Source of the DNA: Candidatus Ghiorseimicrobium undicola
Lineage (GTDB): Bacteria; Omnitrophota; Gorgyraeia; Ghiorseimicrobiales; Ghiorseimicrobiaceae
Length of the DNA: 64,000 nt
Assembly (NCBI GenBank): GCA_002796125.1
Contig: PCWA01000035.1
Span: forward strand, 457-64,456
Reading direction: 5' to 3'
The position numbers and the translations under genes were made by a program. The notes below the pieces were generated by a model, which had not been told where the DNA came from, did no database searches, and saw nothing but the letters and a program-made list of their open reading frames with translations. This document shows, one piece after another, positions 9,406-36,972 of the stretch. Within the stretch, counting starts at the first letter, position 1; each line of letters starts with the position of its first letter.

Positions 9406-9409
9406 TTTT

Positions 9410-9850: not shown

Positions 9851-9877
9851 AACTGCCTAACCGCTTGAGGAATTTGG

Positions 9878-14689: not shown

Positions 14690-14879
14690 GACAGTCCTCA
14701 GATTAGGAAATCGGGGGACACAATACTAATTTAATGGCATCTCCCGTAAGGAAAAAGATTAGAAACTACTAATTCTAATAACCGGACAGTCCTCAGATTA
14801 GGAAATCGGGGGACACAATACTAATTTAATGGCATCTCCCGTAAGGAAAAAGATTAGAAACTACTAATTCTAATAACCG
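14690..14879. repeat. Perfect tandem duplication: 2 x 95 bp (14690-14784 and 14785-14879) in the ahbC-hemB intergenic region.
   Basis: The two copies are identical base for base. Each contains a small stem (CGGGGGA...TCTCCCG) and no ORF. Confidence 0.9.
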
Positions 14880-14921
14880 CGTAGGTTGATAAAGTCAGAA
14901 AATGCGGCTTAAAGAAATAAT

Positions 14922-17470: not shown

Positions 17471-17471
17471 T

Positions 17472-17936: not shown

Positions 17937-17946
17937 AAGGATATTA

Positions 17947-20702: not shown

Positions 20703-21233
20703 ATGGCAAAAAAAAGTTTAATTTTAACCATTGGCTTATTGTTTATTTTTTGCGGATTATCCGTAGCCGAAGGAGAGCATAAGTATATCGGTGTTAAGAA
20801 GTGTTCAATGTGCCATCAGTCTGATGCAAAAGGCAACCAGTACAAACAATGGCTCTCTACCGCGCATGCTAAGGCTTATGAAAGATTGGGCAGCCCAGAA
20901 GCTAAAGAAACTGCCGAAAAAGCAGGAGTATCGGGCAATCCTCAAGAAGTAGGCCAATGTTTAAAGTGCCATATAACCGCCTATGGCGCAGATGGAAGCT
21001 TATTAGATTCCGGATTTAAGAAAGAAGACGGTGTGCAGTGCGAAACATGCCATGGAGCAGGAAGCGATTATATGGCAATGAGCGTTATGCAGGATAGGGA
21101 TAAGGCAATTGCCGCGGGCTTGATTATGCCTACGGAAGAGGTCTGCGTTAAATGCCATAATGAAGAAAGCCCGAATTTTAAAGGTTTCAATTTTGACGAG
21201 TATTATCCAAAAATAGCGCACCCAAGGCCGTAA
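20703..21233 (+). CDS. Periplasmic tetraheme cytochrome c.
   Basis: Signal peptide and four CxxCH (CSMCH, CLKCH, CETCH, CVKCH). Confidence 0.75.
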   Translation: MAKKSLILTIGLLFIFCGLSVAEGEHKYIGVKKCSMCHQSDAKGNQYKQWLSTAHAKAYERLGSPEAKETAEKAGVSGNPQEVGQCLKCHITAYGADGSLLDSGFKKEDGVQCETCHGAGSDYMAMSVMQDRDKAIAAGLIMPTEEVCVKCHNEESPNFKGFNFDEYYPKIAHPRP

Positions 21234-21343: not shown

Positions 21344-22405
21344 ATGTCGATTAAACAAACTAAAATCTGGAAATTTTTTTCATCCATGCAATTGGCAATA
21401 TGGCTATTGGCCGTTATTGCTCTTTTTTCTCTTGTGGGGACCCTGATACCGCAAAATCAGCAGGCCGCTGAATATATTTCGCGCTACGGCCATACGGGTT
21501 ATGAAATTCTCCTAAAAACCGGCCTGCTGAATATGTATTCTTCATGGTGGTTTATTTTTCTTATGGGGTTGCTTTCTTTGAATTTAAGTGTTTGTCTTAT
21601 TAATAGATTTTCGCCGCGCCTGCGCCTTCTCGGGACTTTTTTATCGCATTTCAGCATACTTATGATATTAGCCGGCGCTTTGACAGGAATGTTTTTTGGA
21701 GAAAAGGGCTATGTGCAGATTAAAGAAGGCCAAAGCATAGATTCATTTATCTCCAAAGGAAAACCGGTAGCCTTAAATTTTTCCCTAAAACTGGAAGATT
21801 TTATTTATGAAGAATACATCGATGACGAGGAAAATCTTTTGGTCTATGATAATGAGGGAGCATTGCTTTTAGAGCTCAACGCAGGGGATGATAAAAATAC
21901 CGCAATTGCTGATAGCGGCTACAGCATTAAGATATTGCGCTACGTGCCTGACTTTTCCATGGACTTATCAACAAAGGAAGTCGTAAGCCGGTCACAGGAG
22001 CCGATAAATCCGGCATTGCAGGTTGCGCTTACGGATAAAGATGGCAATTCCGTAGAGTCTTGGGTTTTTGCCCGCTATCCTGATGTCCACATGTCGGCGG
22101 AGAAAAAATTCAATTTTAAATATCAATGGAAGATGCGCAGGCCCAAGGAGTTTATAAGCAGGGTTGCGGTTATAAAAGATAGAGAGATAGTCAGTGAAAA
22201 AGATATAAAGGTAAACAGCCCTTTAAAATACGGCGGCTATGCTTTTTTTCAATCCAGCTATGATAAAGAGAGCTTGGCATGGTCGGGCTTACAAATAGTT
22301 AAGGATCCGGGCGTGCCTATTGTTTATCTGGGTTTTATTTTGCTTATATTTGGGCTGTCGATTATATTTTATGTCAACCCTGCCCTAAGAAGCCGGGCGA
22401 CATAA
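21344..22405 (+). CDS. resB: Cytochrome c biogenesis protein ResB/CcsB (System II), short form.
   Basis: N-terminus KFFSSMQLAIWLLAVIALFSLVGTLIPQ is the conserved ResB start. A periplasmic domain and C-terminal TMs (LWFGLSIIFYV) follow. Confidence 0.75.
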   Translation: MSIKQTKIWKFFSSMQLAIWLLAVIALFSLVGTLIPQNQQAAEYISRYGHTGYEILLKTGLLNMYSSWWFIFLMGLLSLNLSVCLINRFSPRLRLLGTFLSHFSILMILAGALTGMFFGEKGYVQIKEGQSIDSFISKGKPVALNFSLKLEDFIYEEYIDDEENLLVYDNEGALLLELNAGDDKNTAIADSGYSIKILRYVPDFSMDLSTKEVVSRSQEPINPALQVALTDKDGNSVESWVFARYPDVHMSAEKKFNFKYQWKMRRPKEFISRVAVIKDREIVSEKDIKVNSPLKYGGYAFFQSSYDKESLAWSGLQIVKDPGVPIVYLGFILLIFGLSIIFYVNPALRSRAT

Positions 22406-22590: not shown

Positions 22591-23361
22591 ATGCTTCCCG
22601 TATACTTAAATATCAGTTTTGCCGCGTATTTTTTATCAATGTTTTTTTATTTCGCGGCTTTATTTTTTAAACATAAAGCCTTGTCTCTGGCCGCGAGGAT
22701 TTTCTTGTGCCTTGGGGTTGCGGGTTTGACGGCTTATATGCTGCTGCGTTGGCAAGTAGCGCAAAGGCCGCCACTTTCTAATATGTTTGAGTCTGTGGTA
22801 TTGTTTGCTTGGGTGGTGGGCCTGGCAGGATTTTTTATCGATATGCGCTACAGGCTTAAGATTCTGGCAGCATTAGTTTCAGCCTTGAGCCTATTAACGC
22901 TCGGTATCAGTTTTTTATTGGATAAAGAGATAGTACCTTTATTGCCTGCTTTAAAAAGTAATTGGCTTACTATTCACGTATTAACATGTTTTATCGGTTA
23001 TGCCGCCTTGACCGTTGGTTTTGTGGCTAGCGTTGTTTTGTTGTTAACTGATGAAAAAACAGATATCTTGGATGCCATAAGCCATAAAACAATCGCCTTT
23101 GGATTTTTATTTCTGACATTAGGTATTGTAAGCGGAGCGGTCTGGGCAAATTCGGCCTGGGGTACATATTGGAGCTGGGACCCGAAAGAGACATGGTCAT
23201 TGATTACCTGGTTTATATACGCGATATACCTGCATGCGCGGTTCAGAAGAGGCTGGAAAGGGAAAAAAGCCGCCTGGTTTTCTATTATTGGGTTTTTGGC
23301 TATGTTATTTACTTATTTTGGAGTAAACTATTTATTGAGAGGGCTGCATAGTTATGCCTAG
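22591..23361 (+). CDS. ccsA: Cytochrome c-type biogenesis protein CcsA/ResC (heme-handling, System II).
   Basis: WWD-domain signature WANSAWGTYWSWDPKETWSLITW, conserved His residues and eight TMs. Confidence 0.9.
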   Translation: MLPVYLNISFAAYFLSMFFYFAALFFKHKALSLAARIFLCLGVAGLTAYMLLRWQVAQRPPLSNMFESVVLFAWVVGLAGFFIDMRYRLKILAALVSALSLLTLGISFLLDKEIVPLLPALKSNWLTIHVLTCFIGYAALTVGFVASVVLLLTDEKTDILDAISHKTIAFGFLFLTLGIVSGAVWANSAWGTYWSWDPKETWSLITWFIYAIYLHARFRRGWKGKKAAWFSIIGFLAMLFTYFGVNYLLRGLHSYA

Positions 23362-24205
23362 AGCGTTTGGAGTCAAAAATACTATAATTTTAATTTTTAT
23401 ATGTGCTTTTATTTTTCCGGCGCTTTCCTTTAGCGCGCTTGTATTTGCGCAGGAGAGCGAATTTAAGGAAAAATGCCGCTCCTGCCATAAGGAGGTTTTG
23501 GATAAATGGGATATGTCAGCTATAAAGCATTATCCTTATCGTGAAGGAAAGTGTGAGTCTTGTCATGCGGCAGAGCACAAAAAATTTACGGCGGAAGCGG
23601 GCAAGCCATGTTTGATTTGTCATGATTTAACGTCTGAAAAAATAAAGAACAGCCATTTTTCTGTAAATTTAAGTGATGTCGATTGTTTTTCATGCCATTA
23701 TACGCATAGCGCGGAGAAAAAAGGATTATTGAAAGAAAGCGTGCATATGCCGTTCTCTTCCGGCATGTGCGAAATGTGCCATAGCGTTGACGGGGGTAAA
23801 ATAAAAGTAAAAGATATGACTAAAAAATCGTGCCTTGCCTGTCATGGTACTTTGGTAAGCAAGGACGATTCAGTTAAGCATATGGGCTATGAAATGCAGG
23901 AATGTGTGGATTGTCACAATCCACATACTTCAAGCCACGAAAAACTTTTAAAAAGCTCTGTTTCTGAGAACTGCTTTCAATGTCATGATAGAGAACAGGC
24001 TAAGAAGCACCCATACGATGTTAGCGTATCTTCGCGTATTTTAAATAATATGCTTGACAAAGATAAGAAAATATGGTTAACTTATAGCAACAAAATAAGT
24101 TGTACGAGCTGTCATCTTCCGCATTCCGCAAGGATCCCATTTTTGCTGAGAGATTCTCTTGATCAGGGGGAGCTTTGCAATCATTGTCATATAAAAAGTA
24201 AGTAA
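23354..24205 (+). CDS. Decaheme cytochrome c (periplasmic/membrane-associated).
   Basis: N-terminal hydrophobic segment and ten CxxCH in 283 aa. Confidence 0.8.
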   Translation: MPRAFGVKNTIILIFICAFIFPALSFSALVFAQESEFKEKCRSCHKEVLDKWDMSAIKHYPYREGKCESCHAAEHKKFTAEAGKPCLICHDLTSEKIKNSHFSVNLSDVDCFSCHYTHSAEKKGLLKESVHMPFSSGMCEMCHSVDGGKIKVKDMTKKSCLACHGTLVSKDDSVKHMGYEMQECVDCHNPHTSSHEKLLKSSVSENCFQCHDREQAKKHPYDVSVSSRILNNMLDKDKKIWLTYSNKISCTSCHLPHSARIPFLLRDSLDQGELCNHCHIKSK

Positions 24206-24222: not shown

Positions 24223-25221
24223 ATGGAAAAGAGAAATATTTTTTTTGAAAGATTAGTGAAATTTTTCACGGTGATACTTTTCACTATTTGTTCGCTATTT
24301 TTTGTCGGTTTTCTGCCATCTTTTTGCGAGTCTGCCCCTTCGGGGAAAATAACACATAAATACTTATTTGAGATAAAACCCGATGCAAATAAAATCGGCG
24401 CTTTAAACCAGCCGGCAGATATAGCGGTTGACGTATCAGGTAATTTATATGCTGCTGATACGGTAAATAGCCGCATAGTAGTTTTTGATGCCTCGGGAAA
24501 TGCTAAATTCGCTTTCGGCAGGCATGGAACCGGAAAGGAAGAATTAAGCGCTCCTATGGCTTTAACCGTTGATTCAAAAAATAAAAAGGTTTATGTGGCT
24601 GATTCTTCAAATTACCGCATACAGATATTTAAGACCGACGGCATTTTTCTATCATCCATTGATTTGAATAAAGATAAGACTGGCGAAGAAAAAGATGTGC
24701 GCCCCATAGGGATTGCCGTAGCCGGAGGCGGCAACATCTATGTATCCGATGCGGATAATAACTATATCCGTATATATTCTTCGGATGGTAAATTTTTATC
24801 GAAATTCGGCGGATTTGGATCGGAGAACGGCAAGTTCTGCATACCGGTAGGCTTATTTGTAGATGCGGATGATAAGTTATACGTAGTGGATATGAATAAT
24901 TCCCGGCTGCAGGTTTTTGATAATCAAGGGAATTTTCTATTTAAAATCGGCTCTGCCGGAGACGCAAGAGGCGATTTTGGCAGGCCTAAAGATGTATGCG
25001 TGGATGAGAATGGGTTTATTTATGTTTCTGACGGAGCAAATTTGGTCATCCAGATTTTTGATAAGAACGGTGAATTTATTGACTTAATAGGTGCGGAGAA
25101 AGAAGTTGATTTACAGTTTGCTTCTCCGTTTGGTTTGGCGGTATTAAATGGACGCCTTTATATAACGGACAGATGGAGAAATAGTATCAGAGTTTATGAA
25201 ATTGAGGAGGTGAGTAAATGA
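24223..25221 (+). CDS. NHL-repeat six-bladed beta-propeller protein, secreted.
   Basis: Signal peptide and repeated NHL motifs (YVADSSNYRIQIF, YVSDADNNYIRIY, YVVDMNNSRLQVF, YVSDGANLVIQIF, YITDRWRNSIRVY). Confidence 0.8.
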   Translation: MEKRNIFFERLVKFFTVILFTICSLFFVGFLPSFCESAPSGKITHKYLFEIKPDANKIGALNQPADIAVDVSGNLYAADTVNSRIVVFDASGNAKFAFGRHGTGKEELSAPMALTVDSKNKKVYVADSSNYRIQIFKTDGIFLSSIDLNKDKTGEEKDVRPIGIAVAGGGNIYVSDADNNYIRIYSSDGKFLSKFGGFGSENGKFCIPVGLFVDADDKLYVVDMNNSRLQVFDNQGNFLFKIGSAGDARGDFGRPKDVCVDENGFIYVSDGANLVIQIFDKNGEFIDLIGAEKEVDLQFASPFGLAVLNGRLYITDRWRNSIRVYEIEEVSK

Positions 25222-26318
25222 AAAAGGTTTTTGTTTTGCTGGCGGGGTTTATTTTTGTGGTCGCGGCTTACGGAACAGCCGTAGCCGGTGTTGCCAATAC
25301 CGATCACGATATGTATGCAGAGGGCAAGGGCACAGATCCCAATGTATGCGGTTACTGTCATATTCCGCATAACGCGGTTGGTAATAAAATCTGGTCTGAC
25401 TGGGGTAATGAAGCACAGCTTACATCAGGCCCTTCCAGCCCGATAGGGAACATGTGTTATACCTGCCATGACGGGACAGCAACTAATGCGGGCCAGACTA
25501 CAGTATTCAATACGGCTCTTCAGCAGCATAAAGTAGGCGGGACCGCCGACTGTAATAGTTGCCACACCGTTCATGATAATACTAACGGTAAATTTGTTGG
25601 TATTGTCGCGACTCAGAGCGCAAATACAGAATTTGCCACTTACTGCGAAACTTGCCATGATGCGACTCAGTATCCCGGGGCAGAGATTCACGGTGACCAC
25701 ATTGCAGGCAGTGAGCATCCCTATAAAGATACTGGTGCGTTGCTGGATACCAGCTGTAACGCCTGTCATCAGATGCACGGAGCTGTTAATTACACAACCG
25801 GTTCTTTAACTAATCCGATATTAAAAGCGGATAATACTGATTCGGCGTTTTGCGCCGGATGCCACCCCGCTAAAATACAGGCAACTTCAGGAGCTAATAA
25901 ACATCCTGCTAATTTAACATCGGGAGGGGCTTGGGGTAAGGTTGATTGTCAAGCCTGTCATGACGTGCATCAACCTAATGATCCGGGCAGGCCGTTTGTA
26001 TTACTGGATGATAATGTTGATTCTGCTTATTGCCTTAGTTGTCATGATGCTTCAAGCACGACTAATGGCCCTAAGATTGGAGCCAATAGCCATCCTGTGG
26101 GGGTCGGTTTTAGTGTTACGCCTACGGATCCGACGCTTACTCCTGCCGGAGATGCCATTGATGATAATAACACCGGCGGGCCGGATTATCCGGGAAATAG
26201 TTCGAGCATAGTTTGCGAAAGCTGTCATTCCATACACAGCAAAGGAGTAGCGGCTCCGCTCTTGCGTATTACCGCAGGCGCGGGCACATTATGTATTAAT
26301 TGTCATCCGAACAAATAG
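25218..26318 (+). CDS. Multiheme cytochrome c, paralogue 1 of a tandem family (10 CxxCH).
   Basis: Signal peptide, then HDMY-x-GKGTDPNVCGYCHIPH...KIWSDWGNEAQLTSGPS...IGNMCYTCHDGT, the N-terminal block shared with 26509, 27736 and 28911. Confidence 0.8.
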   Translation: MKKVFVLLAGFIFVVAAYGTAVAGVANTDHDMYAEGKGTDPNVCGYCHIPHNAVGNKIWSDWGNEAQLTSGPSSPIGNMCYTCHDGTATNAGQTTVFNTALQQHKVGGTADCNSCHTVHDNTNGKFVGIVATQSANTEFATYCETCHDATQYPGAEIHGDHIAGSEHPYKDTGALLDTSCNACHQMHGAVNYTTGSLTNPILKADNTDSAFCAGCHPAKIQATSGANKHPANLTSGGAWGKVDCQACHDVHQPNDPGRPFVLLDDNVDSAYCLSCHDASSTTNGPKIGANSHPVGVGFSVTPTDPTLTPAGDAIDDNNTGGPDYPGNSSSIVCESCHSIHSKGVAAPLLRITAGAGTLCINCHPNK

Positions 26319-26347
26319 ATGCAGTAATGTTTTAGATGATAATAGGG

Positions 26348-26377
26348 AAGGGCTACTATTGTTTGATGGTAGCCCTT
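26348..26377 (+). terminator. Hairpin (aagggctac / gtagccctt), a weak Rho-independent terminator candidate between cytochrome paralogues 1 and 2.
   Basis: 9-bp perfect stem with an 11-nt loop, followed by ttccc (short U-tract). A second GC hairpin (cttcggcg...cgccgaag) lies at about 26456-26485. Confidence 0.35.
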
Positions 26378-26508
26378 TTCCCACAAAAAGATTTTAACCC
26401 GCCTTCGCGGAATTCTCCGCCTTGTAAGGCCGGGATGGATAGCTGAGGAATTCCGCTTCGGCGAGGTTTTCGCCGAAGGGAAGAGAAAGATTCTACGCTC
26501 TTACAGGC

Positions 26509-27678
26509 GTGGAGCTTCAAAAAAATTTAATGAAAATTATACATACCGGAATTATTTTGACGTCATCAATTTTTTTATTCTCTATAGCCGATTTGTCTTT
26601 TGCCGGAGTCGCCGGATCCCGGCACGACATGTATTTTTTGAGCAAAGGAACCGACCCTAATCCCTGCGCATACTGCCACATACCGCATAATGCCGCGGGT
26701 GATAAAATCTGGTCTGACTGGGCAAATGAGGCTCAACTCACCAGCGGCCCGTCAACGACCATTGGTAATATGTGCTATACCTGCCATGACGGGACTGCCA
26801 GCTATCGCGGCTTAAATAGCGTATTTAATCTTTCTCTGCAGCAGCATAAAATATCTGCCGGCCGGGATTGCGATATGTGCCACAGTGTGCATGATAACAC
26901 TAACGGGCAATTTATGAATATAGCGGGTAAGCAGAATTCTTATTGTGCCGCCTGTCATGATGCTGCGGTTAATGCCGGAGGGTTAGGCGACCATGTAAGC
27001 TATCCCGCGAATCATCCAAATTGCGGAGGGTGCCATGGAGTATTTGAACTGGATTCATTAGGGGCAAACGGCGATGATGCCAGCTGCCACCTTTGTCATG
27101 CTAAAGCTCACGGCGCGGTAAATTATACGGCAGGATCGATAACTAATCCTATATTAAAATCCAATAATACGGATAGCCAGTATTGCGGGCTTTGCCATCC
27201 GGATTTGGTCCAGGCGAATTCAGGCGGCAGCAAGCATCCGGCCAATACATCAGGCAGTGCTTATGGTAAGATAACATGCCAGTCATGCCATGACCCGCAT
27301 CAGCCCGGGATAACAAACCAGCTGTATCTATTGACGGACAGCAATATAGACTCGCAGATGTGTATTGATTGTCATAACGGTTCCAGCGGCCCGGACATCG
27401 GGCATTCTCATCCTAATCAAGTTAGTTTTGGCACTATTGTTCCTGTAGATGCTTCGCCGCAGACAGGTACCCCTCCGGGTAATCAAATAAATGATAATGA
27501 TTATGATGATGGACATTCGGATCCGGATACTTACCCTGATTATCCCGCTAATTCCGCCAGCATGATATGCGAAACCTGTCATAGCGTGCATCGCAAAGCG
27601 GATAATGCCGGAATAAAACTTTTAAGAATAACCAATACTAATTCGGCATTGTGCTTAAACTGCCACACGGACAAGTAA
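26509..27678 (+). CDS. Multiheme cytochrome c, paralogue 2 (11 CxxCH).
   Basis: Same N-terminal block (SRHDMYFLSKGTDPNPCAYCHIPH...) and shared C-terminus LLRITNTNSALCLNCHTDK. Confidence 0.8.
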   Translation: MELQKNLMKIIHTGIILTSSIFLFSIADLSFAGVAGSRHDMYFLSKGTDPNPCAYCHIPHNAAGDKIWSDWANEAQLTSGPSTTIGNMCYTCHDGTASYRGLNSVFNLSLQQHKISAGRDCDMCHSVHDNTNGQFMNIAGKQNSYCAACHDAAVNAGGLGDHVSYPANHPNCGGCHGVFELDSLGANGDDASCHLCHAKAHGAVNYTAGSITNPILKSNNTDSQYCGLCHPDLVQANSGGSKHPANTSGSAYGKITCQSCHDPHQPGITNQLYLLTDSNIDSQMCIDCHNGSSGPDIGHSHPNQVSFGTIVPVDASPQTGTPPGNQINDNDYDDGHSDPDTYPDYPANSASMICETCHSVHRKADNAGIKLLRITNTNSALCLNCHTDK

Positions 27679-27735: not shown

Positions 27736-28914
27736 ATGAAGAATCAAGAATCAAAAACTGCAGGTTATTTGAAAATTCCCTTAGCCATTAGTTTAATAGT
27801 TCTGGCTTATAATTTAAGTTTCGCCGGGGTGTCCGGGACAGTCCATGACATGTATTCTTTAGGTAAGGGAACAGACCCGAACCCCTGCGGCTATTGCCAT
27901 ATGCCGCATAAGGCCGCAGGAGAGAAAATCTGGTCCGACTGGGGCAATGAGACGCAATTAACCAGCGGTCCATCAACCGCCATAGGTAATATGTGCTATA
28001 CCTGCCATGATGGGACAGTGACTAATGTGGGTTTATCGACAGCGTTTAACGCTTCCCGGCAGCAGCATAAAATACCTGCCGGGCAGGATTGCGATATGTG
28101 CCATAGCGTGCATGATAATACGAACGGAAAGTTTATGAATGTTGTAAAGAAACAGCAAACATATTGCGCCGCCTGCCATGATGCAATAGTTAATGCTGGG
28201 GGGCTTGGCGATATGACTTCAGCTGGAAATCATCCCAGTTATTGGGCGTCTACGCCCGCTCATAATATAAATGGTTCACCCACCGGCGCATTCTGTACGG
28301 CTTGTCATGAACGCGTGCATTATTCTCAATTTGACTGCAGGGGATGTAATTTTTGCCATAAAGCACATGACGGGACTAATTATTCAACCGCGCAAGTGCC
28401 TAATCCGATTTTAAAAGCCGACAATACTGATAGTCAGTATTGTGCCTCATGCCATCCATATAAGATTCAGGCATCAAGCGGTGGTGATAAACATCCGGCA
28501 AACCTTGCGGCAGCTGGCAACTGGGGAAAGGTTATTTGCCATGATTGCCACGATCCGCACCAGCCCGGTGTTACGAACCATCCTTTTATATTAACGGATA
28601 CTAATGTTGATTCGGCAATGTGTATTAATTGCCACGATAATACAGCCGGGCCTGAGATAGGAGTTTCGCATCCGCATCAGATTCCTTTTGGCAGTATAGT
28701 TCCGACTGATGGCTCTGCTGCGGCTGGTACGCCCGCTGCGAATGCAATAGATGATGACGGAGAAGACGGAGTTGATTATCCATTAAATTCAGCTAATCTT
28801 ATTTGTGAGACGTGTCATGGAACACACCGCAGAGTTGATGATGCGGGGACTAAACTACTTAGAATAACCAATACTAATTCGGCATTGTGCCTAAACTGCC
28901 ACACGGATAAATGA
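27736..28914 (+). CDS. Multiheme cytochrome c, paralogue 3 (11 CxxCH).
   Basis: Same family. The last ~80 nt are nearly identical to paralogue 2. The N-terminal MKNQESK is encoded by heptamer repeats. Confidence 0.8.
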   Translation: MKNQESKTAGYLKIPLAISLIVLAYNLSFAGVSGTVHDMYSLGKGTDPNPCGYCHMPHKAAGEKIWSDWGNETQLTSGPSTAIGNMCYTCHDGTVTNVGLSTAFNASRQQHKIPAGQDCDMCHSVHDNTNGKFMNVVKKQQTYCAACHDAIVNAGGLGDMTSAGNHPSYWASTPAHNINGSPTGAFCTACHERVHYSQFDCRGCNFCHKAHDGTNYSTAQVPNPILKADNTDSQYCASCHPYKIQASSGGDKHPANLAAAGNWGKVICHDCHDPHQPGVTNHPFILTDTNVDSAMCINCHDNTAGPEIGVSHPHQIPFGSIVPTDGSAAAGTPAANAIDDDGEDGVDYPLNSANLICETCHGTHRRVDDAGTKLLRITNTNSALCLNCHTDK

Positions 28915-30086
28915 TGAAATTAAAAATGAAAAATAAAAAATCTAAAACCGTGACTTATTTTAAAATTCCCTTAGCCGTCAGTTTATTTTTTTTGATTTAT
29001 GATTTAAGTTTTGCGGGGGTGTCTGGGACAGTCCATGATATGTACACACAGGGTAAAGGCACTAGCCAGGAGGTATGCGCTTATTGCCATATTCCTCATC
29101 AGGCCAAAGGTGATAAAATCTGGTCTGACTGGGCAAATGAGGCTCAACTCACCAGCGGCCCGTCAACAACCATAGGCAATATGTGCTATACCTGCCACGA
29201 CGGGACAGTGACCAATATAGGCTTATCAACGGTATTTAATGCTTCGCTGCAGCAGCACGTTATGCCTGCCGGCCAGGATTGCGATATGTGCCATTCTGTG
29301 CACGATAATACTAACGGTAAGTTTATGAATGTCGGCTTAACCGAGAACTATTATTGCGCCAGTTGCCATAATGCTGCGGTAAACGCTGGCGGGCTGGGTG
29401 ATTATACGAATTCAGGAAACCATTTTAATTATGGCGTATATGACGGCGCCCATCCCAAAAGGTTTGGCTCCGGCTGTTATAGCTGCCATTATGATCATAT
29501 GCAAAGCATCGTGAGTTTAGGCAGTTGTAAATTCTGCCATGAAGCTCATGCCGGAGCGAATTATTCTACGCCATCGGTATCTAAACCTATCTTGCGTATT
29601 GATAACACCGATAGCGCATTTTGTATATCTTGTCATCCTGCGATGCAGCAGGCGACGACAGGCGGCAATAAGCATCCCGCTAATTTGACTGCCGGAGGAA
29701 ATTGGGGCATAGTGGATTGCCATGACTGCCATGATGTACATCAGCCGAATAATCCTAATAATCCTTTTATATTACGTAACCAAAATACCGATTCCGGATA
29801 CTGCGCATATTGTCACGAGGCGATTAATGAAACCTATGGGCCTAAAATCGGTAATGGGCATCCGGTAAATATTGCTTTCGGAGCCTATCCTCCGATTGAT
29901 GCGTCTTTGACGCCTGCGGGCAATGCTATAGATGATGACGCATATTACGGGATAGATTATCCGGCAAATTCATCCGATATGATATGCGAAACATGCCATT
30001 CGGTGCATCGAAAGGGCGTGGCAAGCCCTCTATTGCGCATGAGCATTACGGATAGCTCGTTATGCCTTAACTGTCATCAGATGTAA
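28911..30086 (+). CDS. Multiheme cytochrome c, paralogue 4 (11 CxxCH).
   Basis: Same family. Its start overlaps the stop of paralogue 3. A 56-nt stretch is identical to paralogue 2 (gataaaatctggtctgactgggcaaatgaggctcaactcaccagcggcccgtcaac). Confidence 0.8.
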   Translation: MMKLKMKNKKSKTVTYFKIPLAVSLFFLIYDLSFAGVSGTVHDMYTQGKGTSQEVCAYCHIPHQAKGDKIWSDWANEAQLTSGPSTTIGNMCYTCHDGTVTNIGLSTVFNASLQQHVMPAGQDCDMCHSVHDNTNGKFMNVGLTENYYCASCHNAAVNAGGLGDYTNSGNHFNYGVYDGAHPKRFGSGCYSCHYDHMQSIVSLGSCKFCHEAHAGANYSTPSVSKPILRIDNTDSAFCISCHPAMQQATTGGNKHPANLTAGGNWGIVDCHDCHDVHQPNNPNNPFILRNQNTDSGYCAYCHEAINETYGPKIGNGHPVNIAFGAYPPIDASLTPAGNAIDDDAYYGIDYPANSSDMICETCHSVHRKGVASPLLRMSITDSSLCLNCHQM

Positions 30087-30132: not shown

Positions 30133-31572
30133 ATGAAAAGCATAAAAACTTTATTACCTATATTTGTTTTTATTGTCTGTCTTTTTGCTGCCAGCCATGT
30201 TTTTGCTTCACACGGCCAGGGACAAAAATGTTATATGTGCCATCATGCTATGCATAATAATAATTCTCATGTAGTTATAGACCGCAAGGCTGTTGACAAT
30301 GGGCAGATAGCTTGTTATGATTGCCATTCTTCGGCCAGCGCAGTGGCAGCCCCGGACACGGAAAAAGAATTTATAAGCGGCTATTCCCGTCATCCTTTAG
30401 GAAGCGATAGCGAGTGCGTTGTCTGTCATGATTTGGGCAGCAGCCATATAGACGGTAATCTTGATAGTTGGCCGGACATAACCTTGAAAGATCCAGACTC
30501 GGCGGATTCCCATGTGTACACCGGAGTTAAAATTAATGATTTTTGCCTTTCCTGCCATGATAACAGCCCGGTTACTTTAGGCGGGGCGGCGAATGTGCCT
30601 GTAGATTTATCCAGCGCTTATGAATTTACCGGCCACGGTAAAATAAGCATAGATGAGCCTTGTAATTCCTGCCATGAACATCATGCGTCCATGACTAAAC
30701 CCTACTTGATTAAAGATGTAATTAACAGCGCCAATGTTACGGGAAACGATAATAGCGTATGTTTTGCCTGCCATAGTTATTCAGAAGGAATTTATCCCGG
30801 AAAGAATGTTTATTTATCTTCCGAGCACGGCATCCAAAACAAACTTTGCATAGACTGCCACAATCCGCATGGGGACAATAAGGATTTATGTTATTTATGC
30901 CACAACGCGAATTACTCGGCGCATTACAGCACGCAGCGCGATAAGCTTTGCATAGACTGCCATAATCCGCACGAAAAGAACGACTTAAAGATGAACAGGG
31001 AAGACGAGGAAAAGCTTTGTTTTATTTGTCACTCCGGACTGGAAAATGAATTTGGGAATATCCGAGACGGCGTCGGAGGGGCATTTTCTCATCATAAAGT
31101 TGACGATGAAGAATTCGCAGGCGGCAGGGTAGAATGTTTTGACTGCCATAATCCGCATGTAGTTACAAAGCTGAATATCATTAGCGACCCGGAAGATCCT
31201 CTGCTCATGCCCAGGCCTTTTTCAAGCGCGTCATACCGCCAGAGAACGGCAGTTTATGATGATTTTTGCCTTTCCTGCCACGATGGTTCACGCATGGGCG
31301 CAAAGGACATAGCTTCAGAATTAAGCGATGAAAATTATCTGGATAGCGGTTTTACCGAAGACGGCAGCAAGAACCTGCATGCAGAGCACAAGGATAAAAA
31401 TTTTGGATGCCAAAACTGTCATGATGCGCATTCCAGCGACGGAACCGGAGGCATGCAGCGGGGGGCTCTTTTACATGAGGAAATAACAGTAAATGATTGG
31501 GATCCATCCGGCGGATATAATAACGGTAAAAATTCATGCGATACTTCAGCTTTAGGTATGAGCTGTCATTAA
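30133..31572 (+). CDS. Periplasmic multiheme cytochrome c (about 13 CxxCH).
   Basis: Signal peptide and 13 CxxCH motifs in 479 aa. Directly upstream of the outer-membrane beta-barrel gene. Confidence 0.8.
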   Translation: MKSIKTLLPIFVFIVCLFAASHVFASHGQGQKCYMCHHAMHNNNSHVVIDRKAVDNGQIACYDCHSSASAVAAPDTEKEFISGYSRHPLGSDSECVVCHDLGSSHIDGNLDSWPDITLKDPDSADSHVYTGVKINDFCLSCHDNSPVTLGGAANVPVDLSSAYEFTGHGKISIDEPCNSCHEHHASMTKPYLIKDVINSANVTGNDNSVCFACHSYSEGIYPGKNVYLSSEHGIQNKLCIDCHNPHGDNKDLCYLCHNANYSAHYSTQRDKLCIDCHNPHEKNDLKMNREDEEKLCFICHSGLENEFGNIRDGVGGAFSHHKVDDEEFAGGRVECFDCHNPHVVTKLNIISDPEDPLLMPRPFSSASYRQRTAVYDDFCLSCHDGSRMGAKDIASELSDENYLDSGFTEDGSKNLHAEHKDKNFGCQNCHDAHSSDGTGGMQRGALLHEEITVNDWDPSGGYNNGKNSCDTSALGMSCH

Positions 31573-31611
31573 TGTTTAGAATATATAATGCAGAATGTAG
31601 AATGTAAAATT
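31570..31611. repeat. 7-bp-periodic tandem repeat (tagaatg-type) spanning the stop of the 13-heme cytochrome and the start of the beta-barrel gene.
   Basis: taatgtt tagaata tataatg cagaatg tagaatg taaaatt. Confidence 0.8.
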
Positions 31612-33387
31612 AACGAGGTAGAAGGGATATTACTATTTTTAGGGGTGTTTTTATGCGCTTTTTTATTTCTTTGCAAAAGTTCTTATGCGAATCCGGCAGA
31701 GAATTTAAATATTAATGCCGAATCCGAATATAAATTCAGTGATTTTGAGCGCGATCCGGAACCAGCCTTGTCATCAACCGGAGCGAATCTTTCCCAGGAG
31801 TATAAGTTTTATTTAGAAGGAGGGGTATTAAAAGACGGGTTGCTTGATGCCGAATTAGGAGTGTCCACGCAGGATAAATACAGGCAAAATGATGCGGATT
31901 TTGAAGATAAGGTGCGTTTTGATTACGGCAGGATTCTACGCATAGAAACAGAGACAACTAGAGAAACCGATGAAGAGATATTCTTTTCAGCCACTACTGA
32001 GCCGCAATCCCCGATATATACAATACGTAAAAAGTATGACGGCCGGCTTGCTCTGGACAGCGTATCAGAATTTGAGTATATTTTAGATCAAAACGAGAGG
32101 AATGATTTGCTTCTTGGCACTGTTACCGGAGAAAAAACCAAAACGCAAATTTTGCGTTTTCGTTCTGATAGGGGGCCTTTGAGTTTTGAAAGCGAATACC
32201 GAAAATCTGACTTTGATGACCTTTTGGGCGTACGCAGCGACATCAGTTCCACGGATTTGAATTTTAATCTTTCTTATCGTCCGGTAAAGTATTTTGGTAT
32301 TTCCGGTTTTTTTGAAGAGAGCAAGGATGAGGATTTAGATAGAAGTACGGAGTTAAATTCCCGTAACTCGCGCCTTGAACTTGAGTTAAAGCCCTTAAAT
32401 GAATTAAAATTGCGTAATCGTTTTAATATCCGGGAAGACGAAGATACAAATACCGGCGAAGACATAACCAATACCTCTGATGAGGTTATACTTAATTTTA
32501 TTCCTGTAAAACAGGTTGACTTACAGCTTAACTATAAAAAAGAGGACGAAGATAAAAACAGAGATTCTTCCTCCATTGTTTCCGAGATTGACGAAAAAAA
32601 AGTCCGCCTAAGAATTAAGCCGGTAAGCGAGCTTGACCTGCAATCGGGATATGAAGTGTCGGATAAGTCAAGTAGTTCAGCGGCTGAAAATATCAAAAAT
32701 ACAAAAGTTTATGCCGATATCGCGTTTGAGCCGTTAACAAGTATCCGGCTAAGCACGAATTACACGAATACAACACAAAAAAATACCTTTACTTCTTTGA
32801 CGGAATCTGATACAAAATCTATATTGGCATCCCTTCAGTATAGGGGAGGCGAAAAGCTGTCTTTCTATTTTCAGGCGGATACAAGTAAAACCGATAATCC
32901 TTCAACGGGGGCGTTTACAAAGACAGATACCCTAAGTTCAAATTTAAATATCGATCTTTTTTCATTTCTTGATGTAGTTGCCCGTAGCAGCCTGCAGGAA
33001 ACCAGCGGATCTTCCGCTTCTGCTTTGGCAAAACGGCTGCTTAGCTCGATAGAATTCAATGCTCGGATTTTTGATAACCTGAAGCTTTCTACTGAGTATG
33101 AATTTATTGATTCAAGCGGAGCGTCTGCTTCAAATGAAGATTTATTTGATGTAGCGGTATTTTACAATATTGGAAAATTTGATTTTTCCTTGCGCCTCCA
33201 GAAGCGGGATGTAGCAGGAGTTAATGCCTTAGATAAAACAACGGTGTTGAGTAATATTAAATACAGATTTACAAAAAACGCGGTATTGAGTTTCAGGTTT
33301 TCCTTAATAGATTTCAGCGATAAAGAGATGGCGGCGAATAGCTATGACTCCACCACGCTGGAGAGTATTTTATCCATGAGGTTCTGA
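31588..33387 (+). CDS. Outer-membrane beta-barrel protein (putative porin component of a porin-cytochrome conduit).
   Basis: Signal peptide, 599 aa of alternating amphipathic S/T/D/N/Y-rich segments, and a C-terminal ...ILSMRF ending in Phe (OMP signature). Flanked by multiheme cytochromes. Confidence 0.6.
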   Translation: MQNVECKINEVEGILLFLGVFLCAFLFLCKSSYANPAENLNINAESEYKFSDFERDPEPALSSTGANLSQEYKFYLEGGVLKDGLLDAELGVSTQDKYRQNDADFEDKVRFDYGRILRIETETTRETDEEIFFSATTEPQSPIYTIRKKYDGRLALDSVSEFEYILDQNERNDLLLGTVTGEKTKTQILRFRSDRGPLSFESEYRKSDFDDLLGVRSDISSTDLNFNLSYRPVKYFGISGFFEESKDEDLDRSTELNSRNSRLELELKPLNELKLRNRFNIREDEDTNTGEDITNTSDEVILNFIPVKQVDLQLNYKKEDEDKNRDSSSIVSEIDEKKVRLRIKPVSELDLQSGYEVSDKSSSSAAENIKNTKVYADIAFEPLTSIRLSTNYTNTTQKNTFTSLTESDTKSILASLQYRGGEKLSFYFQADTSKTDNPSTGAFTKTDTLSSNLNIDLFSFLDVVARSSLQETSGSSASALAKRLLSSIEFNARIFDNLKLSTEYEFIDSSGASASNEDLFDVAVFYNIGKFDFSLRLQKRDVAGVNALDKTTVLSNIKYRFTKNAVLSFRFSLIDFSDKEMAANSYDSTTLESILSMRF

Positions 33388-34331
33388 TGGAATATCAAAT
33401 ACCGAATATTGAAAATCAAAAATACAGATCTATTATTTTTTTGATTTTTATATTTGTTTCTTTGCAGCTTGCGTTTTTTATAGATAAAAATACTGCCTTT
33501 GCCGAAGGGCTAAAGAATCTTAATGATGACTGCCGCGGCTGTCATCAAATAGAAGTTGAAAGTTTTGATTTAACTTTACACTCAGCGGAGATTGATTGTG
33601 CTGCCTGCCATGGTGATGTTAAAAAACATTTAAGCGAAAGCGATAAAAAAGGCAATATAATTAATCCCGCTAATTACGCGTTAAAAAAGGCAAATGCCGT
33701 ATGCCTGCTTTGTCATACGGAAAAAGAAAGAGATGTCCGCGATAAATTCAGGGCGGTTGCTAATCTGCATGATGATATAGCGTGTTTTAGGTGCCATGTT
33801 GTTCATTTGACTGCTGTAGATGCTCCGGTAAGCGATATTGACGGTTTTAGAGATGATTTATCTATAGATTGCGCCTTCTGCCATGATGACCAGGGCCGGA
33901 TTTTTAGCGAGTCGGAGCATGCCTCTTCAGGCCTGATATGTTCCGATTGCCATCTGCTGCATAAGATAAGTACCATAAGCCAGGATATTGAAGAGCAGAT
34001 TGAAAAATGCCTTTCATGCCATCCTCAGCAGCAGCTGGAATTTAAATACCCCTATCCGCATCCATTAAGAGAGCGGCAAATTAAATGTTCGGATTGCCAT
34101 AATCCGCACGGTTGGCAATTTGATAAAATGCTAAAAAAAGACGGCGATAGGGTTTGCGCGGATTGCCATGCCGACGTGGCCATAGAAGGAGGCAGGCATC
34201 CCGCGGGTAAAAACGCGGACCATCCGTTCGGCACTGTAGCGTGTATGGATTGCCACAGGCCGCACGGCTCAATTTTTGATAAAATTTTAATACATAATAT
34301 TGATAGTATTTGCCAAACCTGCCATAATTAG
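33387..34331 (+). CDS. Multiheme cytochrome c (about 11 CxxCH).
   Basis: Signal peptide and 11 CxxCH in 314 aa. Translationally coupled to the beta-barrel gene (start overlaps its stop). Confidence 0.8.
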   Translation: MEYQIPNIENQKYRSIIFLIFIFVSLQLAFFIDKNTAFAEGLKNLNDDCRGCHQIEVESFDLTLHSAEIDCAACHGDVKKHLSESDKKGNIINPANYALKKANAVCLLCHTEKERDVRDKFRAVANLHDDIACFRCHVVHLTAVDAPVSDIDGFRDDLSIDCAFCHDDQGRIFSESEHASSGLICSDCHLLHKISTISQDIEEQIEKCLSCHPQQQLEFKYPYPHPLRERQIKCSDCHNPHGWQFDKMLKKDGDRVCADCHADVAIEGGRHPAGKNADHPFGTVACMDCHRPHGSIFDKILIHNIDSICQTCHN

Positions 34332-34385
34332 GAATACGGATTATGGCGGATAATATATACGGATGCATACGGATTAAATATGGGA
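34332..34385. repeat. 7-bp-periodic tandem repeat (atacgga-type) between the 11-heme cytochrome and the lipoprotein gene.
   Basis: gaatacg gattatg gcggata atatata cggatgc atacgga ttaaata. Confidence 0.75.
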
Positions 34386-34392
34386 GGATTGA

Positions 34393-35250
34393 ATGTATAA
34401 GAACATGAAATGCAAAATATTACTGGTTACGAGTTACTGGCTGCTGGTTACTTTCTTTATTGGCTGCGCGAGCGGGCCATCAAGTTATTGGCGGCCTAAG
34501 CATTTCTCGCGCTCTAAGTACATAAAGGTTGCCATAGTGCCTTTTACAAATCTCAGTAAAGAAAAGGAAGCTGATCAAAGGATAGCCTATTCATTGATAA
34601 CGCATCTTCTCAATACGCATTATTTTAATGTTGTTGAAATGGGGGAAGTGCAAAGGGCTTTGAAGGAAGCCAAGGTGCGCAAGGATGAGGGCCTCTCGGT
34701 AGAGGAAATTAAAAAAATCGGCCGGCTGATTGATGTAGAAGCCTTGCTTATGGGCGCGGTAGAAGAGTATAAGATTGATTCCAGCACTTTACTTGGAGAA
34801 AAAGTATTTGTGCCGGAAGTGTCGATTAACGCGAGGTTAGTCTCTACTGAAGACGCCGAGATAATCTGGGCCGCGAATCACCATCGCAGAGGGGATGACA
34901 GGGTAACTGTGTTTGGGATGGGCAGAATTGACTCTATCAGCGAATTGACAGATGTTATTATAAAGAACATTGTTAATTCTTTGCTTAAAGTGGCAAAAAG
35001 CAAGAGGAGCGCGCTTACCGGGTTAAAACGAAGCGTTATTTTGGAGGATGTCCCAGACGAGGAATTAGAAAATACCGTTTTGGATATTAAGCCTGCCTTA
35101 CGCGAAGATGTCATGGATAAGGCAATGGAAAGCGTAAAAACGGCGTCAAAAGATTCCTCAAGCGCGATAGCGCCTAAAACAGAAGATTCAAAGGCAAAAA
35201 TAAAAAGCGATTACAAAAGAGAGTATGAGCGTGTAAAAAAACAATTTTAA
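34393..35250 (+). CDS. Lipoprotein (lipobox FIGC), unknown function.
   Basis: N-terminal LLVTFFIGCASG signal plus lipobox. Part of the cytochrome/porin cluster. Confidence 0.5.
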   Translation: MYKNMKCKILLVTSYWLLVTFFIGCASGPSSYWRPKHFSRSKYIKVAIVPFTNLSKEKEADQRIAYSLITHLLNTHYFNVVEMGEVQRALKEAKVRKDEGLSVEEIKKIGRLIDVEALLMGAVEEYKIDSSTLLGEKVFVPEVSINARLVSTEDAEIIWAANHHRRGDDRVTVFGMGRIDSISELTDVIIKNIVNSLLKVAKSKRSALTGLKRSVILEDVPDEELENTVLDIKPALREDVMDKAMESVKTASKDSSSAIAPKTEDSKAKIKSDYKREYERVKKQF

Positions 35251-35259: not shown

Positions 35260-35694
35260 ATGACAAGATTTTCCGGGAAAATAATTATATTTTGTTTGAT
35301 ATCGCTTGTAGCGGTTATTTCCTATAGCATTAGCCAGGAAATTTTAAATTCCGGAGAGGACTGCATTAAATGCCATGATCCGGCACTTGGCCCGCAAAGA
35401 AATTTTGTCCATCCGTTAATAAGAGAACATAAGTGCCGTGCTTGTCATATTGATTACGACGCCGAAGAACATATAGAAGGCGATAAGCCCCAAATAGATG
35501 TATGCGCAGGGTGCCATCCGGAGGAAAACCTCGGGCGTTCTCATCCTATTGGCAGCGGGATTACTGACCCTAATACCAATGATACGATGACCTGTGTTTC
35601 CACATGCCATAGGATGCACGGTACGGATTTTAAGCAGCTTGTCCCTTTTAAAAATAATATGGAGCTATGTTTAAGTTGCCATGAAGACTTTTAA
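35260..35694 (+). CDS. Small multiheme cytochrome c (4 CxxCH plus 1 CX3CH).
   Basis: Signal anchor plus CIKCH, CRACH, CAGCH, CLSCH and CVSTCH. Confidence 0.7.
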   Translation: MTRFSGKIIIFCLISLVAVISYSISQEILNSGEDCIKCHDPALGPQRNFVHPLIREHKCRACHIDYDAEEHIEGDKPQIDVCAGCHPEENLGRSHPIGSGITDPNTNDTMTCVSTCHRMHGTDFKQLVPFKNNMELCLSCHEDF

Positions 35695-35721: not shown

Positions 35722-36321
35722 TTGCTTTGGAAGGGAGATAAGATGGAAAATAAGAGCTTTAAGAGAAGAAACTATTTTTTAAAAGATAGCCCCCAGCCTG
35801 GATTAATCGTAAAGACATACCTGATCCTGTTTATTATTATGCTTGTTTCAGGGGTGGTATTTTACTTTATCGGAAACAAAAATTTGTCCCGGGAATTTTT
35901 TCAGGCGCATTCGGTAATAAAGACAACCATGCATCTTCTCCTGCCGTCGCTGATTTTAATTAACCTGATTGCCATCCTAGGCTCGGCTTTTATGGTAATA
36001 AATTTTACGCATTCCGTGGCAGGCCCGATATACCGCTTAAAACACATATCCGAAAAAGTGGCGAATGGCGATTTGACTTTAAAAGTACATTTTCGCAAAA
36101 AAGATACAATCCATCAGCTGGCAGAAATAATAAACCATATTATCAAAGGGCTGCATTTACGCCTCAAAGAGTTTGACGGTTCATTAGCGAAACTGCGCGA
36201 TTTGTCGGAACAGATAAATAATCTGGATAAGCTTTCCTATGATGAATTGGCGCATTTAAAGAAGAAGCTTTTAGCGGTTAGCTTGGAGTTTGAGAAAGAA
36301 ATAGAAAAATTTAAGCTCTAG
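35722..36321 (+). CDS. Membrane protein with a HAMP-like domain and C-terminal coiled coil.
   Basis: Two TMs followed by ISEKVANGDLTLKVHFRKKDTIHQLAEIINHIIKGL (HAMP-like). Confidence 0.4.
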   Translation: MLWKGDKMENKSFKRRNYFLKDSPQPGLIVKTYLILFIIMLVSGVVFYFIGNKNLSREFFQAHSVIKTTMHLLLPSLILINLIAILGSAFMVINFTHSVAGPIYRLKHISEKVANGDLTLKVHFRKKDTIHQLAEIINHIIKGLHLRLKEFDGSLAKLRDLSEQINNLDKLSYDELAHLKKKLLAVSLEFEKEIEKFKL

Positions 36322-36394: not shown

Positions 36395-36456
36395 CAAAAT
36401 TGTTAATCGGCTGTTTTTTTATCTTGCGCGCGCGCAGGATTTATTATGGAGGATAT

Positions 36457-36972
36457 ATGGAAAGCAAGCCTATTAAAGGGCTTATATTAGCGCTGGTGTT
36501 TTTGTCTTTAGGCGGTTTATTGCTGCATTTGCGGATACACCCGGTTTTTGAGGATGGCGTATTGGAATGGGAGTATTTGATACCGCCGGCATTTGGATTG
36601 TTGACGGTTATTCTTTTACCCTTTTTGTTTTGGCGAAAAGATACCGCTGATTTAGCCTATCTTTTAGCCGGCGTTAGCGTAATTTTCGGCATAATCATAA
36701 TGAGCCATTTGTCTATTGTCAATTGGCAGGGGGGAATTACAATTTTTAAGGTTTTATTTACGACCACGCTGGCGGATTCTTTGATGCTTTTGTCTAAATT
36801 TTTTGTTGCCAGGGCTATATTTAACGGTTATTATCCTGAAAGGACAACCTTGAATTATAAATTCCCGCAAAATTTCAGGTTTCTCTTTGACGGCTGGTGG
36901 CTGCTTCATTTTATAGCGATCGGCACAGTTTATTCTTTAGGTGTTGTTCTATCCGTACGAGGTGTGATATGA
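36457..36972 (+). CDS. Integral membrane protein, unknown function.
   Basis: ATG at 36457 with a ggagga SD. 5-6 TM helices. Confidence 0.45.
   Translation: MESKPIKGLILALVFLSLGGLLLHLRIHPVFEDGVLEWEYLIPPAFGLLTVILLPFLFWRKDTADLAYLLAGVSVIFGIIIMSHLSIVNWQGGITIFKVLFTTTLADSLMLLSKFFVARAIFNGYYPERTTLNYKFPQNFRFLFDGWWLLHFIAIGTVYSLGVVLSVRGVI

Follow-up and report, generated by a model that had tools for sequence, protein, structure and literature searches.

A conserved operon segment of Omnitrophota that probably encodes an outer-membrane electron conduit

The window analysed here, a stretch of 64,000 nucleotides (nt) on contig PCWA01000035.1 of Candidatus Ghiorseimicrobium undicola, carries an operon segment of six genes, strictly conserved in one lineage of Omnitrophota, that, judged from its sequences and from a structural model, probably builds an outer-membrane electron conduit. 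At its centre the gene for a very large predicted beta-barrel overlaps the gene for a multihaem cytochrome that is identified by sequence comparison as a homologue of MtrA. A porin-cytochrome reading of the locus is supported, its basis being sequence analysis and one model of medium confidence. Outer-membrane electron conduits are understood structurally for MtrCAB only; here one conserved operon block joins an MtrA homologue, a new and unusually large barrel family, a haem-free lipoprotein and expanded relatives of the cytochrome OmcE. No description of the barrel, its MtrA-like partner, the lipoprotein or the OmcE-like proteins in Omnitrophota was found in the literature. In sequence the barrel is 100% identical to a hypothetical protein from a Crystal Geyser genome of Candidatus Omnitrophica.

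A conserved six-gene segment

The genes of the segment, and a hairpin that follows them, are as follows.

30133-31572, + strand: 13-haem c-type cytochrome, 479 amino acids (aa); 13 CxxCH motifs and a type-I signal peptide
31588-33387, + strand: predicted outer-membrane beta-barrel, 599 aa; no CxxCH, ends in SMRF, AlphaFold model
33387-34331, + strand: MtrA-like 11-haem cytochrome, 314 aa; 11 CxxCH motifs, match to PDB 6R2Q_A
34393-35250, + strand: haem-free outer-membrane lipoprotein, 285 aa; lipobox, Pfam CsgG/LpoB
35260-35694, + strand: small cytochrome, 144 aa; four CxxCH and one CxxxCH, recognised also by synteny
35722-36321, + strand: HAMP membrane protein, 199 aa; transmembrane segment, HAMP domain and coiled coil
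36421-36440, + strand: terminator-like hairpin, 100 nt after the HAMP gene, from a consensus scan only; possible end of the operon

An earlier sequence-only reading had proposed a module of four genes: a 13-haem cytochrome, a barrel ending in SMRF, an 11-haem cytochrome and a lipoprotein. All four are real genes on the + strand, with the positions, motif counts and ending that it gave, and it is the extent of the module that has to be revised, as it runs on through the 5-haem and HAMP genes. Its proposal that the barrel and the 11-haem gene are translationally coupled also holds; the ATG of the 11-haem gene shares one base with the TGA of the barrel gene (TGATG, TTCTGATGG). The richness in CxxCH is well beyond chance, since residue-shuffled versions of the 13-haem and 11-haem cytochromes carry a mean of 0.1 such motifs and a maximum of 2, against the 13 and 11 observed. 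In a six-frame translation of the window every one of the 97 CxxCH motifs lies on the + strand, and 93 of the 97 are found within 20-36 kb.

The gene order (13-haem, barrel, 11-haem, lipoprotein, 5-haem, HAMP) is kept in five further Omnitrophota loci, designated L001-L004 and L006, where the orthologues have haem counts identical to those in the window. Upstream of the 13-haem gene these loci again share an order, consisting of a 10-haem cytochrome, an NHL propeller and two or three 10-11-haem paralogues, and the HAMP gene is the last one conserved in all six loci. The barrels of the six loci are only 47-62% identical. Co-occurrence of the barrel with multihaem cytochromes, which had been suggested as a check, is seen at the level of families: the barrel, 13-haem and lipoprotein families lie on the same contigs, and all six Omnitrophota loci have the genes in the same order. 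The orthologous loci do not keep the one-base overlap itself, and the gap between barrel and cytochrome genes is never more than 27 nt (2 nt in L001, 27 nt in L002, 15 nt in L004 and 1 nt in L006, with an apparent overlap in L003).

Two minor features of the flanks were also recorded. In L001 a 923-aa protein with 19 CxxCH motifs is encoded upstream of the cluster (157-2928) and is absent from the window. After the operon the window, like L001 and L002, encodes a multi-pass membrane protein without a Pfam match (36457-36972), translation of which probably starts in the window at the internal ATG at 36457.

The 11-haem protein is an MtrA homologue

A comparison with the PDB matched the 11-haem protein to MtrA in the structure of MtrCAB, with an E-value (E) of 2.1e-24 (6R2Q chain A, which is MtrA; the depositor's molecule name is misprinted). 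Its motifs 3-11 align with motifs 1-9 of MtrA, nine in succession, and it has two extra haems at the N-terminus while a counterpart of MtrA haem 10 is missing. Against the family model for DmsE/MtrA, TIGR03508, it scores 144.7 bits, below the cut-off of 192.2. On this alignment the protein is a homologue of MtrA. The possibility had been raised that the flanking cytochromes would be too large to enter the barrel; the protein from the barrel-coupled gene is a true homologue of MtrA and similar to it in size.

Sequence and family of the barrel

Relatives of the barrel are rare. Only 12 homologues (47-100% identical) were found among 5.8 billion proteins, and those with a source name or on fetched loci all come from Omnitrophota metagenome-assembled genomes. 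The terminal phenylalanine is invariant in the 12. Cleavage of the signal peptide at SYA/NP would leave about 564 residues, in place of the mature length of about 575 that had been estimated before. The mature barrel lacks a CxxC because all three of its cysteines sit in the signal peptide, in agreement with the earlier failure to find the N-terminal CxxC of MtrB. The mature protein also contains no tryptophan or histidine and only two methionines, and it is very acidic, with an isoelectric point of about 4.7; the absence of tryptophan is unusual for an outer-membrane protein.

The models for the MtrB/PioB family (PF11854, TIGR03509) gave no match to the window barrel at E <= 0.1, nor to any of the 12 family members at E <= 1. 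Searches of the PDB with the single sequence and with a profile returned only retron reverse transcriptases at E > 0.1. The earlier remark that the barrel has no obvious similarity to MtrB stands for the sequence; in predicted structure MtrB is the best, though a weak, match (below). No substrate-specific porin family was matched. What was found is a partial match to the generic Pfam family Porin_4 (31.7 bits), which joins barrel residues 427-571 of 599 to profile positions 162-302 of 310; as it covers the C-terminal part only, no full-length match to a 16-18-strand trimeric porin was obtained.

A profile search of 1.84 billion representative proteins returned the barrel's own family, fragments and a single remote relative, P0016 (E 4e-4), to which the barrel aligns over the last 210 residues of P0016 (hhalign probability 93%). 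P0016 is encoded between a lipoprotein cytochrome and a decahaem protein that is homologous to the 11-haem protein of the window (E 2e-21). This is a classical porin-cytochrome cluster.

L005, 388-5214: decahaem MtrA-like cytochrome, 612-aa barrel (P0016) and a glycine-rich lipoprotein cytochrome cut by the contig end

Predicted structure of the barrel

The barrel was modelled with AlphaFold2 on an alignment of 12 sequences. The model has a mean predicted local distance difference test (pLDDT) of 71.5, a predicted template modelling score (pTM) of 0.57 and 30 strands by DSSP between residues 39 and 597, far above the 16 that the sequence-only reading had taken as the least for a pore of this kind. 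For strands 8-27 the block-mean pLDDT is mostly at or above 70. All strand pairs are hairpins, loops measure 16 aa at the most and a plug domain is absent. Long and short connections alternate strictly, with means of 7.0 residues for the presumed outer loops and 3.1 for the periplasmic turns, and most of the modelled strands show a two-residue hydrophobic alternation. The strand register is supported by these three features, the hairpin pairing and the alternations of loop length and hydrophobicity.

Conservation within the family is higher on the lumen face (0.76) and in the outer loops (0.77) than on the lipid face (0.64) and in the periplasmic turns (0.66; permutation p 0.003). Ordinary porins usually vary most in their surface loops. 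Mapped on the model, the pattern would fit a barrel that holds a conserved protein partner by its inside and its outer rim.

When the model was compared with the PDB by Foldseek, MtrB (6R2Q_B) ranked first (E 1.5e-7, TM-score 0.40), with TonB-dependent receptors, LptD and SlpA close behind; the Deinococcus SlpA barrel has 30 strands. Such a ranking points to a giant barrel and not to homology with MtrB. If the model is right, the pore would be about 15% wider than that of a 26-strand barrel, with the circumference scaled by strand number. Such a wide pore without a plug would have to be filled by something.

The other proteins of the segment

An extracellular place for the 13-haem protein, or its entry into the barrel, is not supported; it has an ordinary type-I signal peptide and no lipobox. 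It gave no match to the OmcA/MtrC family model TIGR03507, and no sequence relative in the PDB. Its C-terminal end is a C-x8-CH element (C469...C478-H479; window 31537-31569) that is invariant in 16 aligned homologues and takes up the only cysteines of the protein outside CxxCH motifs; from its sequence it may be a non-canonical site for a 14th haem. The ten close orthologues occur only on barrel-bearing Omnitrophota contigs, and beyond them the similarity is that of multihaem proteins in general. An AlphaFold model from the 16-sequence alignment reached a pLDDT of 42 and a pTM of 0.27 and was for that reason not used for a fold search.

The lipoprotein has the lipobox FIGC/ASGPSSY, and its orthologues, which when close lie on the same contigs as the barrel, have canonical L-[AS]-G-C boxes. 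Its domain is of the CsgG/LpoB/GNA1162 type (Pfam CsgG 36.2 bits, LpoB 22.7 bits). It contains no CxxCH and two cysteines only, one of them the lipidated one, and ends in a charged tail; no sequence relative was found in the PDB. The 144-aa 5-haem protein is probably a periplasmic shuttle. The HAMP protein scores 23.9 bits against Pfam HAMP, below the cut-off of 25.

OmcE homologues and an NHL propeller upstream

Directly upstream of the segment are the genes for System II cytochrome maturation, a beta-propeller and further multihaem cytochromes. They are listed here with a canonical OmcE cluster from a metagenome (L007) and with the hairpins that occupy a matching position in other loci.

21344-22405, + strand: ResB-like gene (System II maturation)
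22591-23361, + strand: CcsA-type haem-handling gene (the NCBIfam model is named CcsB)
23354-24205, + strand: 10-haem cytochrome, 283 aa; its start overlaps the end of ccsA
24223-25221, + strand: NHL-repeat six-bladed beta-propeller (Pfam NHL 126 bits); signal peptide, no lipobox
25218-26318, + strand: OmcE-like paralogue 1, 10 haems
26345-26382, + strand: strong hairpin directly after the first OmcE-like gene (-24.8 kcal/mol, z -3.5)
26509-27678, 27736-28914 and 28911-30086, + strand: OmcE-like paralogues, 11 haems each
L001 6065-6144, L002 4793-5017, L004 7188-7308 and L006 11093-11181: position-matched hairpins
L007, 1673-12529: CcsA, 17-haem cytochrome, NHL lipoprotein, 806-aa barrel-like protein, second NHL lipoprotein, 4-haem OmcE

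A profile of the OmcE-like family, made from the four paralogues and their orthologues, matches the OmcE filament subunit of G. sulfurreducens in the PDB (7TFS_A, E 2.3e-14) and OmcE of D. soudanensis (9YUQ_N, E 6e-12). The N-terminal half of OmcE (signal peptide, x-H-D-[LM] motif and haems 1-2) and its C-terminal half (haems 3-4) flank an insertion of six to seven haems, and 20 histidines are invariant for the 10 haems that the family shares. By these profile matches the four paralogues are OmcE homologues; they are candidates for extracellular or polymerising cytochromes.

Hairpins with other sequences occupy the same position, behind the first OmcE-like gene, in all but one of the five other loci. 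As behind major pilin genes, the hairpin could attenuate transcription within the operon or stabilise the mRNA, and its placement would resemble that at genes for major filament subunits.

The window and L007 share homologous CcsA, NHL propeller and OmcE proteins (for OmcE, E about 1e-13); the window propeller is 31% identical (E 8e-32) to a propeller lipoprotein of L007. A hidden Markov model of the barrel showed no similarity to the 806-aa barrel-like protein of L007, and a common ancestry of the two barrels is not supported by this comparison. In L007 a large multi-pass membrane protein, which may be a glycosyltransferase, follows OmcE.

Comparison with known systems

The segment resembles MtrCAB (6R2Q), MtoAB and PioAB in that an MtrA-homologous multihaem cytochrome is encoded beside a very large plug-less barrel, although that barrel, of 26 strands in MtrB, is seen in the window only in the AlphaFold model. 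Like MtoAB and PioAB it is also without an MtrC-type lipoprotein; in contrast to MtrCAB, no extracellular lipoprotein decahaem of the MtrC/OmcA family was found in the module, by TIGR03507 or by lipobox. The barrel differs from MtrB and PioB in having no sequence similarity to them, no N-terminal CxxC and about 30 predicted strands instead of 26. Compared with the MtrAB types the order is barrel and then cytochrome, and the module adds a 13/14-haem cytochrome, a haem-free lipoprotein, a 5-haem protein and a HAMP protein; compared with MtrA itself, the cytochrome has 11 haems and different ends.

In the Geobacter conduits OmaB/OmbB/OmcB, ExtABCD, ExtEFG and ExtHIJKL a periplasmic multihaem cytochrome, a barrel and one or more lipoproteins are clustered. 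A periplasmic multihaem protein and a barrel are likewise present in one cluster here, with their localisation taken from signal peptides. The new barrel family fits this class of conduit because the families in it are mutually unrelated in sequence (PMC6148476). The window barrel is predicted to be much larger than ExtB, ExtE and ExtI, for which 18-21 strands are predicted. Taken together, the module would function like the MtrAB, MtoAB, PioAB and Geobacter conduits but is a member of none of these groups, since it differs in barrel family, lacks the CxxC and an MtrC-type partner and has no redox lipoprotein.

In gene content the surroundings of the segment resemble the omcE clusters of Desulfuromonadia, which sit beside resB/ccsB, always hold multihaem cytochromes and beta-propeller lipoproteins, two of each, together with OmcE and a large beta-barrel, and in which the barrel is described as "putatively functioning as a secretion or anchor" (preprint 10.1101/2025.10.22.684050). 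The window likewise has resB/ccsA, multihaem cytochromes, an NHL propeller, OmcE-family cytochromes and a large barrel. It differs in that its OmcE relatives have 10-11 haems instead of four and are present as four paralogues, in that it has one propeller, without a lipobox, and in that no glycosylation genes follow; with respect to L007, the barrel is unrelated in sequence (599 against 806 aa) and is coupled to an MtrA homologue. The same preprint reports OmcE homologues in five phyla, Omnitrophota not among them (10.1101/2025.10.22.684050), so the present locus extends OmcE-family proteins to a sixth.

Multihaem cytochromes clustered with NHL beta-propellers are also found in Desulfovibrio ferrophilus IS5 (DFE_0448-0451, DFE_0461-0465), where the propeller, and not a beta-barrel, has been proposed to stabilise an outer-membrane cytochrome complex (PMC5815863). 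The Omnitrophota island, which was compared with this system by gene content, has both a propeller and a large barrel. D. ferrophilus-like cytochromes have been reported in 10 of 23 Omnitrophia species (PMC10066038), and homologues of CbcL and ImcH in Omnitrophica (PMC6295460); the locus gives a molecular basis for the "metal-reducing cytochromes" flagged in the class Omnitrophia. Finally, the porin-multihaem clusters EET1-4 of peat Acidobacteriota and Verrucomicrobiota, which are 8-31% identical to the model systems (10.64898/2026.05.27.727921), are similar in that porins and MtrA-, MtrC- or OmcE-like cytochromes form conserved syntenic clusters there, in phyla that are uncultured and lie outside the Proteobacteria. 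They differ in phylum and in protein families, and the barrel profile search found no relationship to those porins.

A possible mechanism and its alternatives

In the conduit that we favour, the 599-aa protein would form a barrel of about 30 strands in the outer membrane, very wide and without a plug, and the 11-haem MtrA homologue, made in step with it as the gene overlap suggests, would run through the lumen with its haem chain spanning the membrane, by analogy with MtrAB. On the periplasmic side this chain would exchange electrons with the 5-haem and probably also the 13/14-haem protein, which may connect to a NapC/NirT-like membrane cytochrome encoded 10 kb upstream. At the surface the conduit would pass electrons to extracellular cytochromes that are not lipoproteins; the best candidates are the four OmcE-like proteins, which may be exported by the nearby secretion system. 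The CsgG/LpoB-fold lipoprotein could serve as a structural accessory, as a seal, an anchor or an assembly factor. Electrons might flow either way, in export to minerals or partner cells or in uptake.

Several points weigh against this conduit. The barrel is, by all the sequence searches, an orphan without a detectable relation to MtrB/PioB or to a solved structure. Its model is of moderate quality with the first seven strands at low confidence, and the match of that model to MtrB is weak, with TonB-dependent receptors, LptD and SlpA nearly as good. Porin_4 is matched in part, above its gathering score, by 11 of the 12 family members. No cytochrome of the module is a lipoprotein, unlike MtrC, OmcB and ExtC, and an outer-membrane lipoprotein with a redox cofactor, which the Geobacter systems have (PMC6148476), is lacking. 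The threading of the 11-haem protein through the barrel is an analogy and not a result. Lastly, the barrel occupies the place of the large barrels in OmcE and OmcS clusters, for which secretion or anchoring has been proposed (10.1101/2025.10.22.684050).

The last point leads to a different reading of the barrel, since the island of OmcE-type cytochromes around the module would also suit a nanowire anchor or secretion pore. The barrel would then mainly be an usher-like pore that secretes or anchors polymerising OmcE-like cytochromes, with the MtrA-like and 13-haem proteins as periplasmic feeders. Such a role is consistent with the OmcE homology of the four upstream paralogues, with the constant presence of a large barrel in the published clusters beside resB/ccsB (10.1101/2025.10.22.684050), with the CcsA, propeller and OmcE that L007 has in common with the window, with the width of a 30-strand plug-less barrel and with the conserved position of the hairpin behind the first OmcE-like gene, which recalls major pilin genes. 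However, the window barrel has no sequence similarity to that of L007, and its gene is translationally coupled to the MtrA homologue and not to an OmcE-like gene. Its remote relative P0016 lies in an Mtr-like cluster, on a 5.2 kb contig with no OmcE homologue, and the nearby type II secretion-like system could export folded cytochromes; the secretion role of such barrels is, moreover, itself a hypothesis. Because of the coupling to the MtrA homologue and the setting of P0016 we rate a mainly secretory or anchoring barrel below the conduit and consider it unlikely, but the two are compatible and not exclusive.

The likeliest of the alternatives, though we still think it rather improbable, is that the same conduit runs inward, with extracellular Fe(II), minerals or a partner cell as electron donor and the quinone pool or periplasmic reductases as acceptor. 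The Crystal Geyser aquifer, the source of the genome, is rich in iron, and Fe(II) oxidisers dominate it. An MtrC-type lipoprotein as terminal reductase is missing, as it is from MtoAB and PioAB; homologues of MtrA, MtoA and PioA work in both directions (PMC6148476), and the D. ferrophilus clusters of multihaem cytochromes and NHL propellers are tied to electron uptake (PMC5815863). Set against this, the window showed no genes for a terminal oxidase, a nitrate reductase or carbon fixation that would use such electrons, and Seymour et al. take the D. ferrophilus-like cytochromes of Omnitrophia as metal-reducing (PMC10066038). That the barrel is an ordinary diffusion porin, lying among cytochrome genes by chance, is very improbable. 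The Porin_4 scores just mentioned would suit it, but that match covers residues 427-571 only, and with about 30 modelled strands the protein is about twice the size of the 16-18-strand porins. The family occurs only alongside cytochromes, in a fixed order and overlapping the MtrA-like gene, and an unplugged 30-strand pore with loops of no more than 16 aa would be an intolerably large hole.

Returning to the outer-membrane conduit, a more ambitious version of it would make the whole island a self-contained nanowire machine, in which filaments of the 10-11-haem OmcE-like proteins, joined by their OmcE-type ends, stand on a barrel-threaded MtrA-like base that feeds them electrons, and the lipoprotein and NHL propeller hold the junction. 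We regard this as doubtful, and as less likely again than a barrel that mainly secretes or anchors. The secretion, anchoring and electron feeding of nanowires are an openly stated gap (PMC12307469). Were the nanowire machine real, it would provide cytochrome nanowires with the membrane anchor and the point of electron entry that are missing so far, its filaments would have the longest haem chain per subunit known, and the wiring could be used for electron exchange between cells in a phylum of ultra-small, possibly host-dependent cells. More generally, to judge from this locus, the "large barrel" of nanowire clusters may serve as an electron conduit, instead of or besides being a secretion pore. 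If this is confirmed, the scoring of extracellular electron transfer in subsurface metagenomes would change, because the barrel is invisible to current profile-based tools.

Wider genomic context

The segment is the tail of one co-directional block that also holds haem synthesis, the NapC/NirT-like cytochrome, the maturation genes and the OmcE homologues. Features further upstream are the following.

815-8104, + strand: type II secretion/type IV pilus-like cluster (secretin, GspF/PilC, pseudopilins, GspE/PilB ATPase)
8755-19849, + strand: haem biosynthesis block, including a sirohaem-dependent (Ahb-type) branch
19869-20663, + strand: NapC/NirT (NrfH)-like membrane-anchored cytochrome, eight CxxCH and one variant motif
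20703-21233, + strand: c554-like tetrahaem protein

The haem block holds a full pathway and encodes a sirohaem synthase N-domain, HemA, HemC, CobA-HemD, HemB and HemL and, for the Ahb-type branch, a NirDL/AhbAB-like pair and two radical-SAM/SPASM enzymes like AhbC/D. As haem synthesis lies directly upstream of the cytochrome genes, cofactor supply, maturation and apoproteins are brought together in one block. By its sequence the NapC/NirT-like protein is a candidate quinol dehydrogenase. A sigma-70 consensus with 12 of 12 positions (TTGACA, 17 nt spacer, TATAAT) stands at 19647-19675, inside the 3' end of hemL and about 190 nt upstream of the NapC/NirT-like gene. Promoter and terminator scans of the window were overall not above shuffled expectation, and their hits are hints only; an Rfam search of the window gave no regulatory RNA and one tRNA only.

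The secretion cluster is a possible export route for cytochromes that are not lipoproteins. The GspE model scores 632.4 bits (cut-off 630.25), with the PilB, PilQ and GspD models nearly as good, and in L006 the same kind of cluster (708-7858) directly abuts the cytochrome genes. The GspE-like ATPase of the window also carries an MshEN domain, which binds cyclic di-GMP.

A magnetosome-related role was considered and set aside, as no magnetosome family was matched among the window proteins scanned, which were not every open reading frame. Downstream, the window encodes a second outer-membrane barrel, of the alginate-export (AlgE-like) family (49376-50920), and a ParA/MinD-type ATPase fused to a CBM48/AMPK glycogen-binding module (51675-52784).

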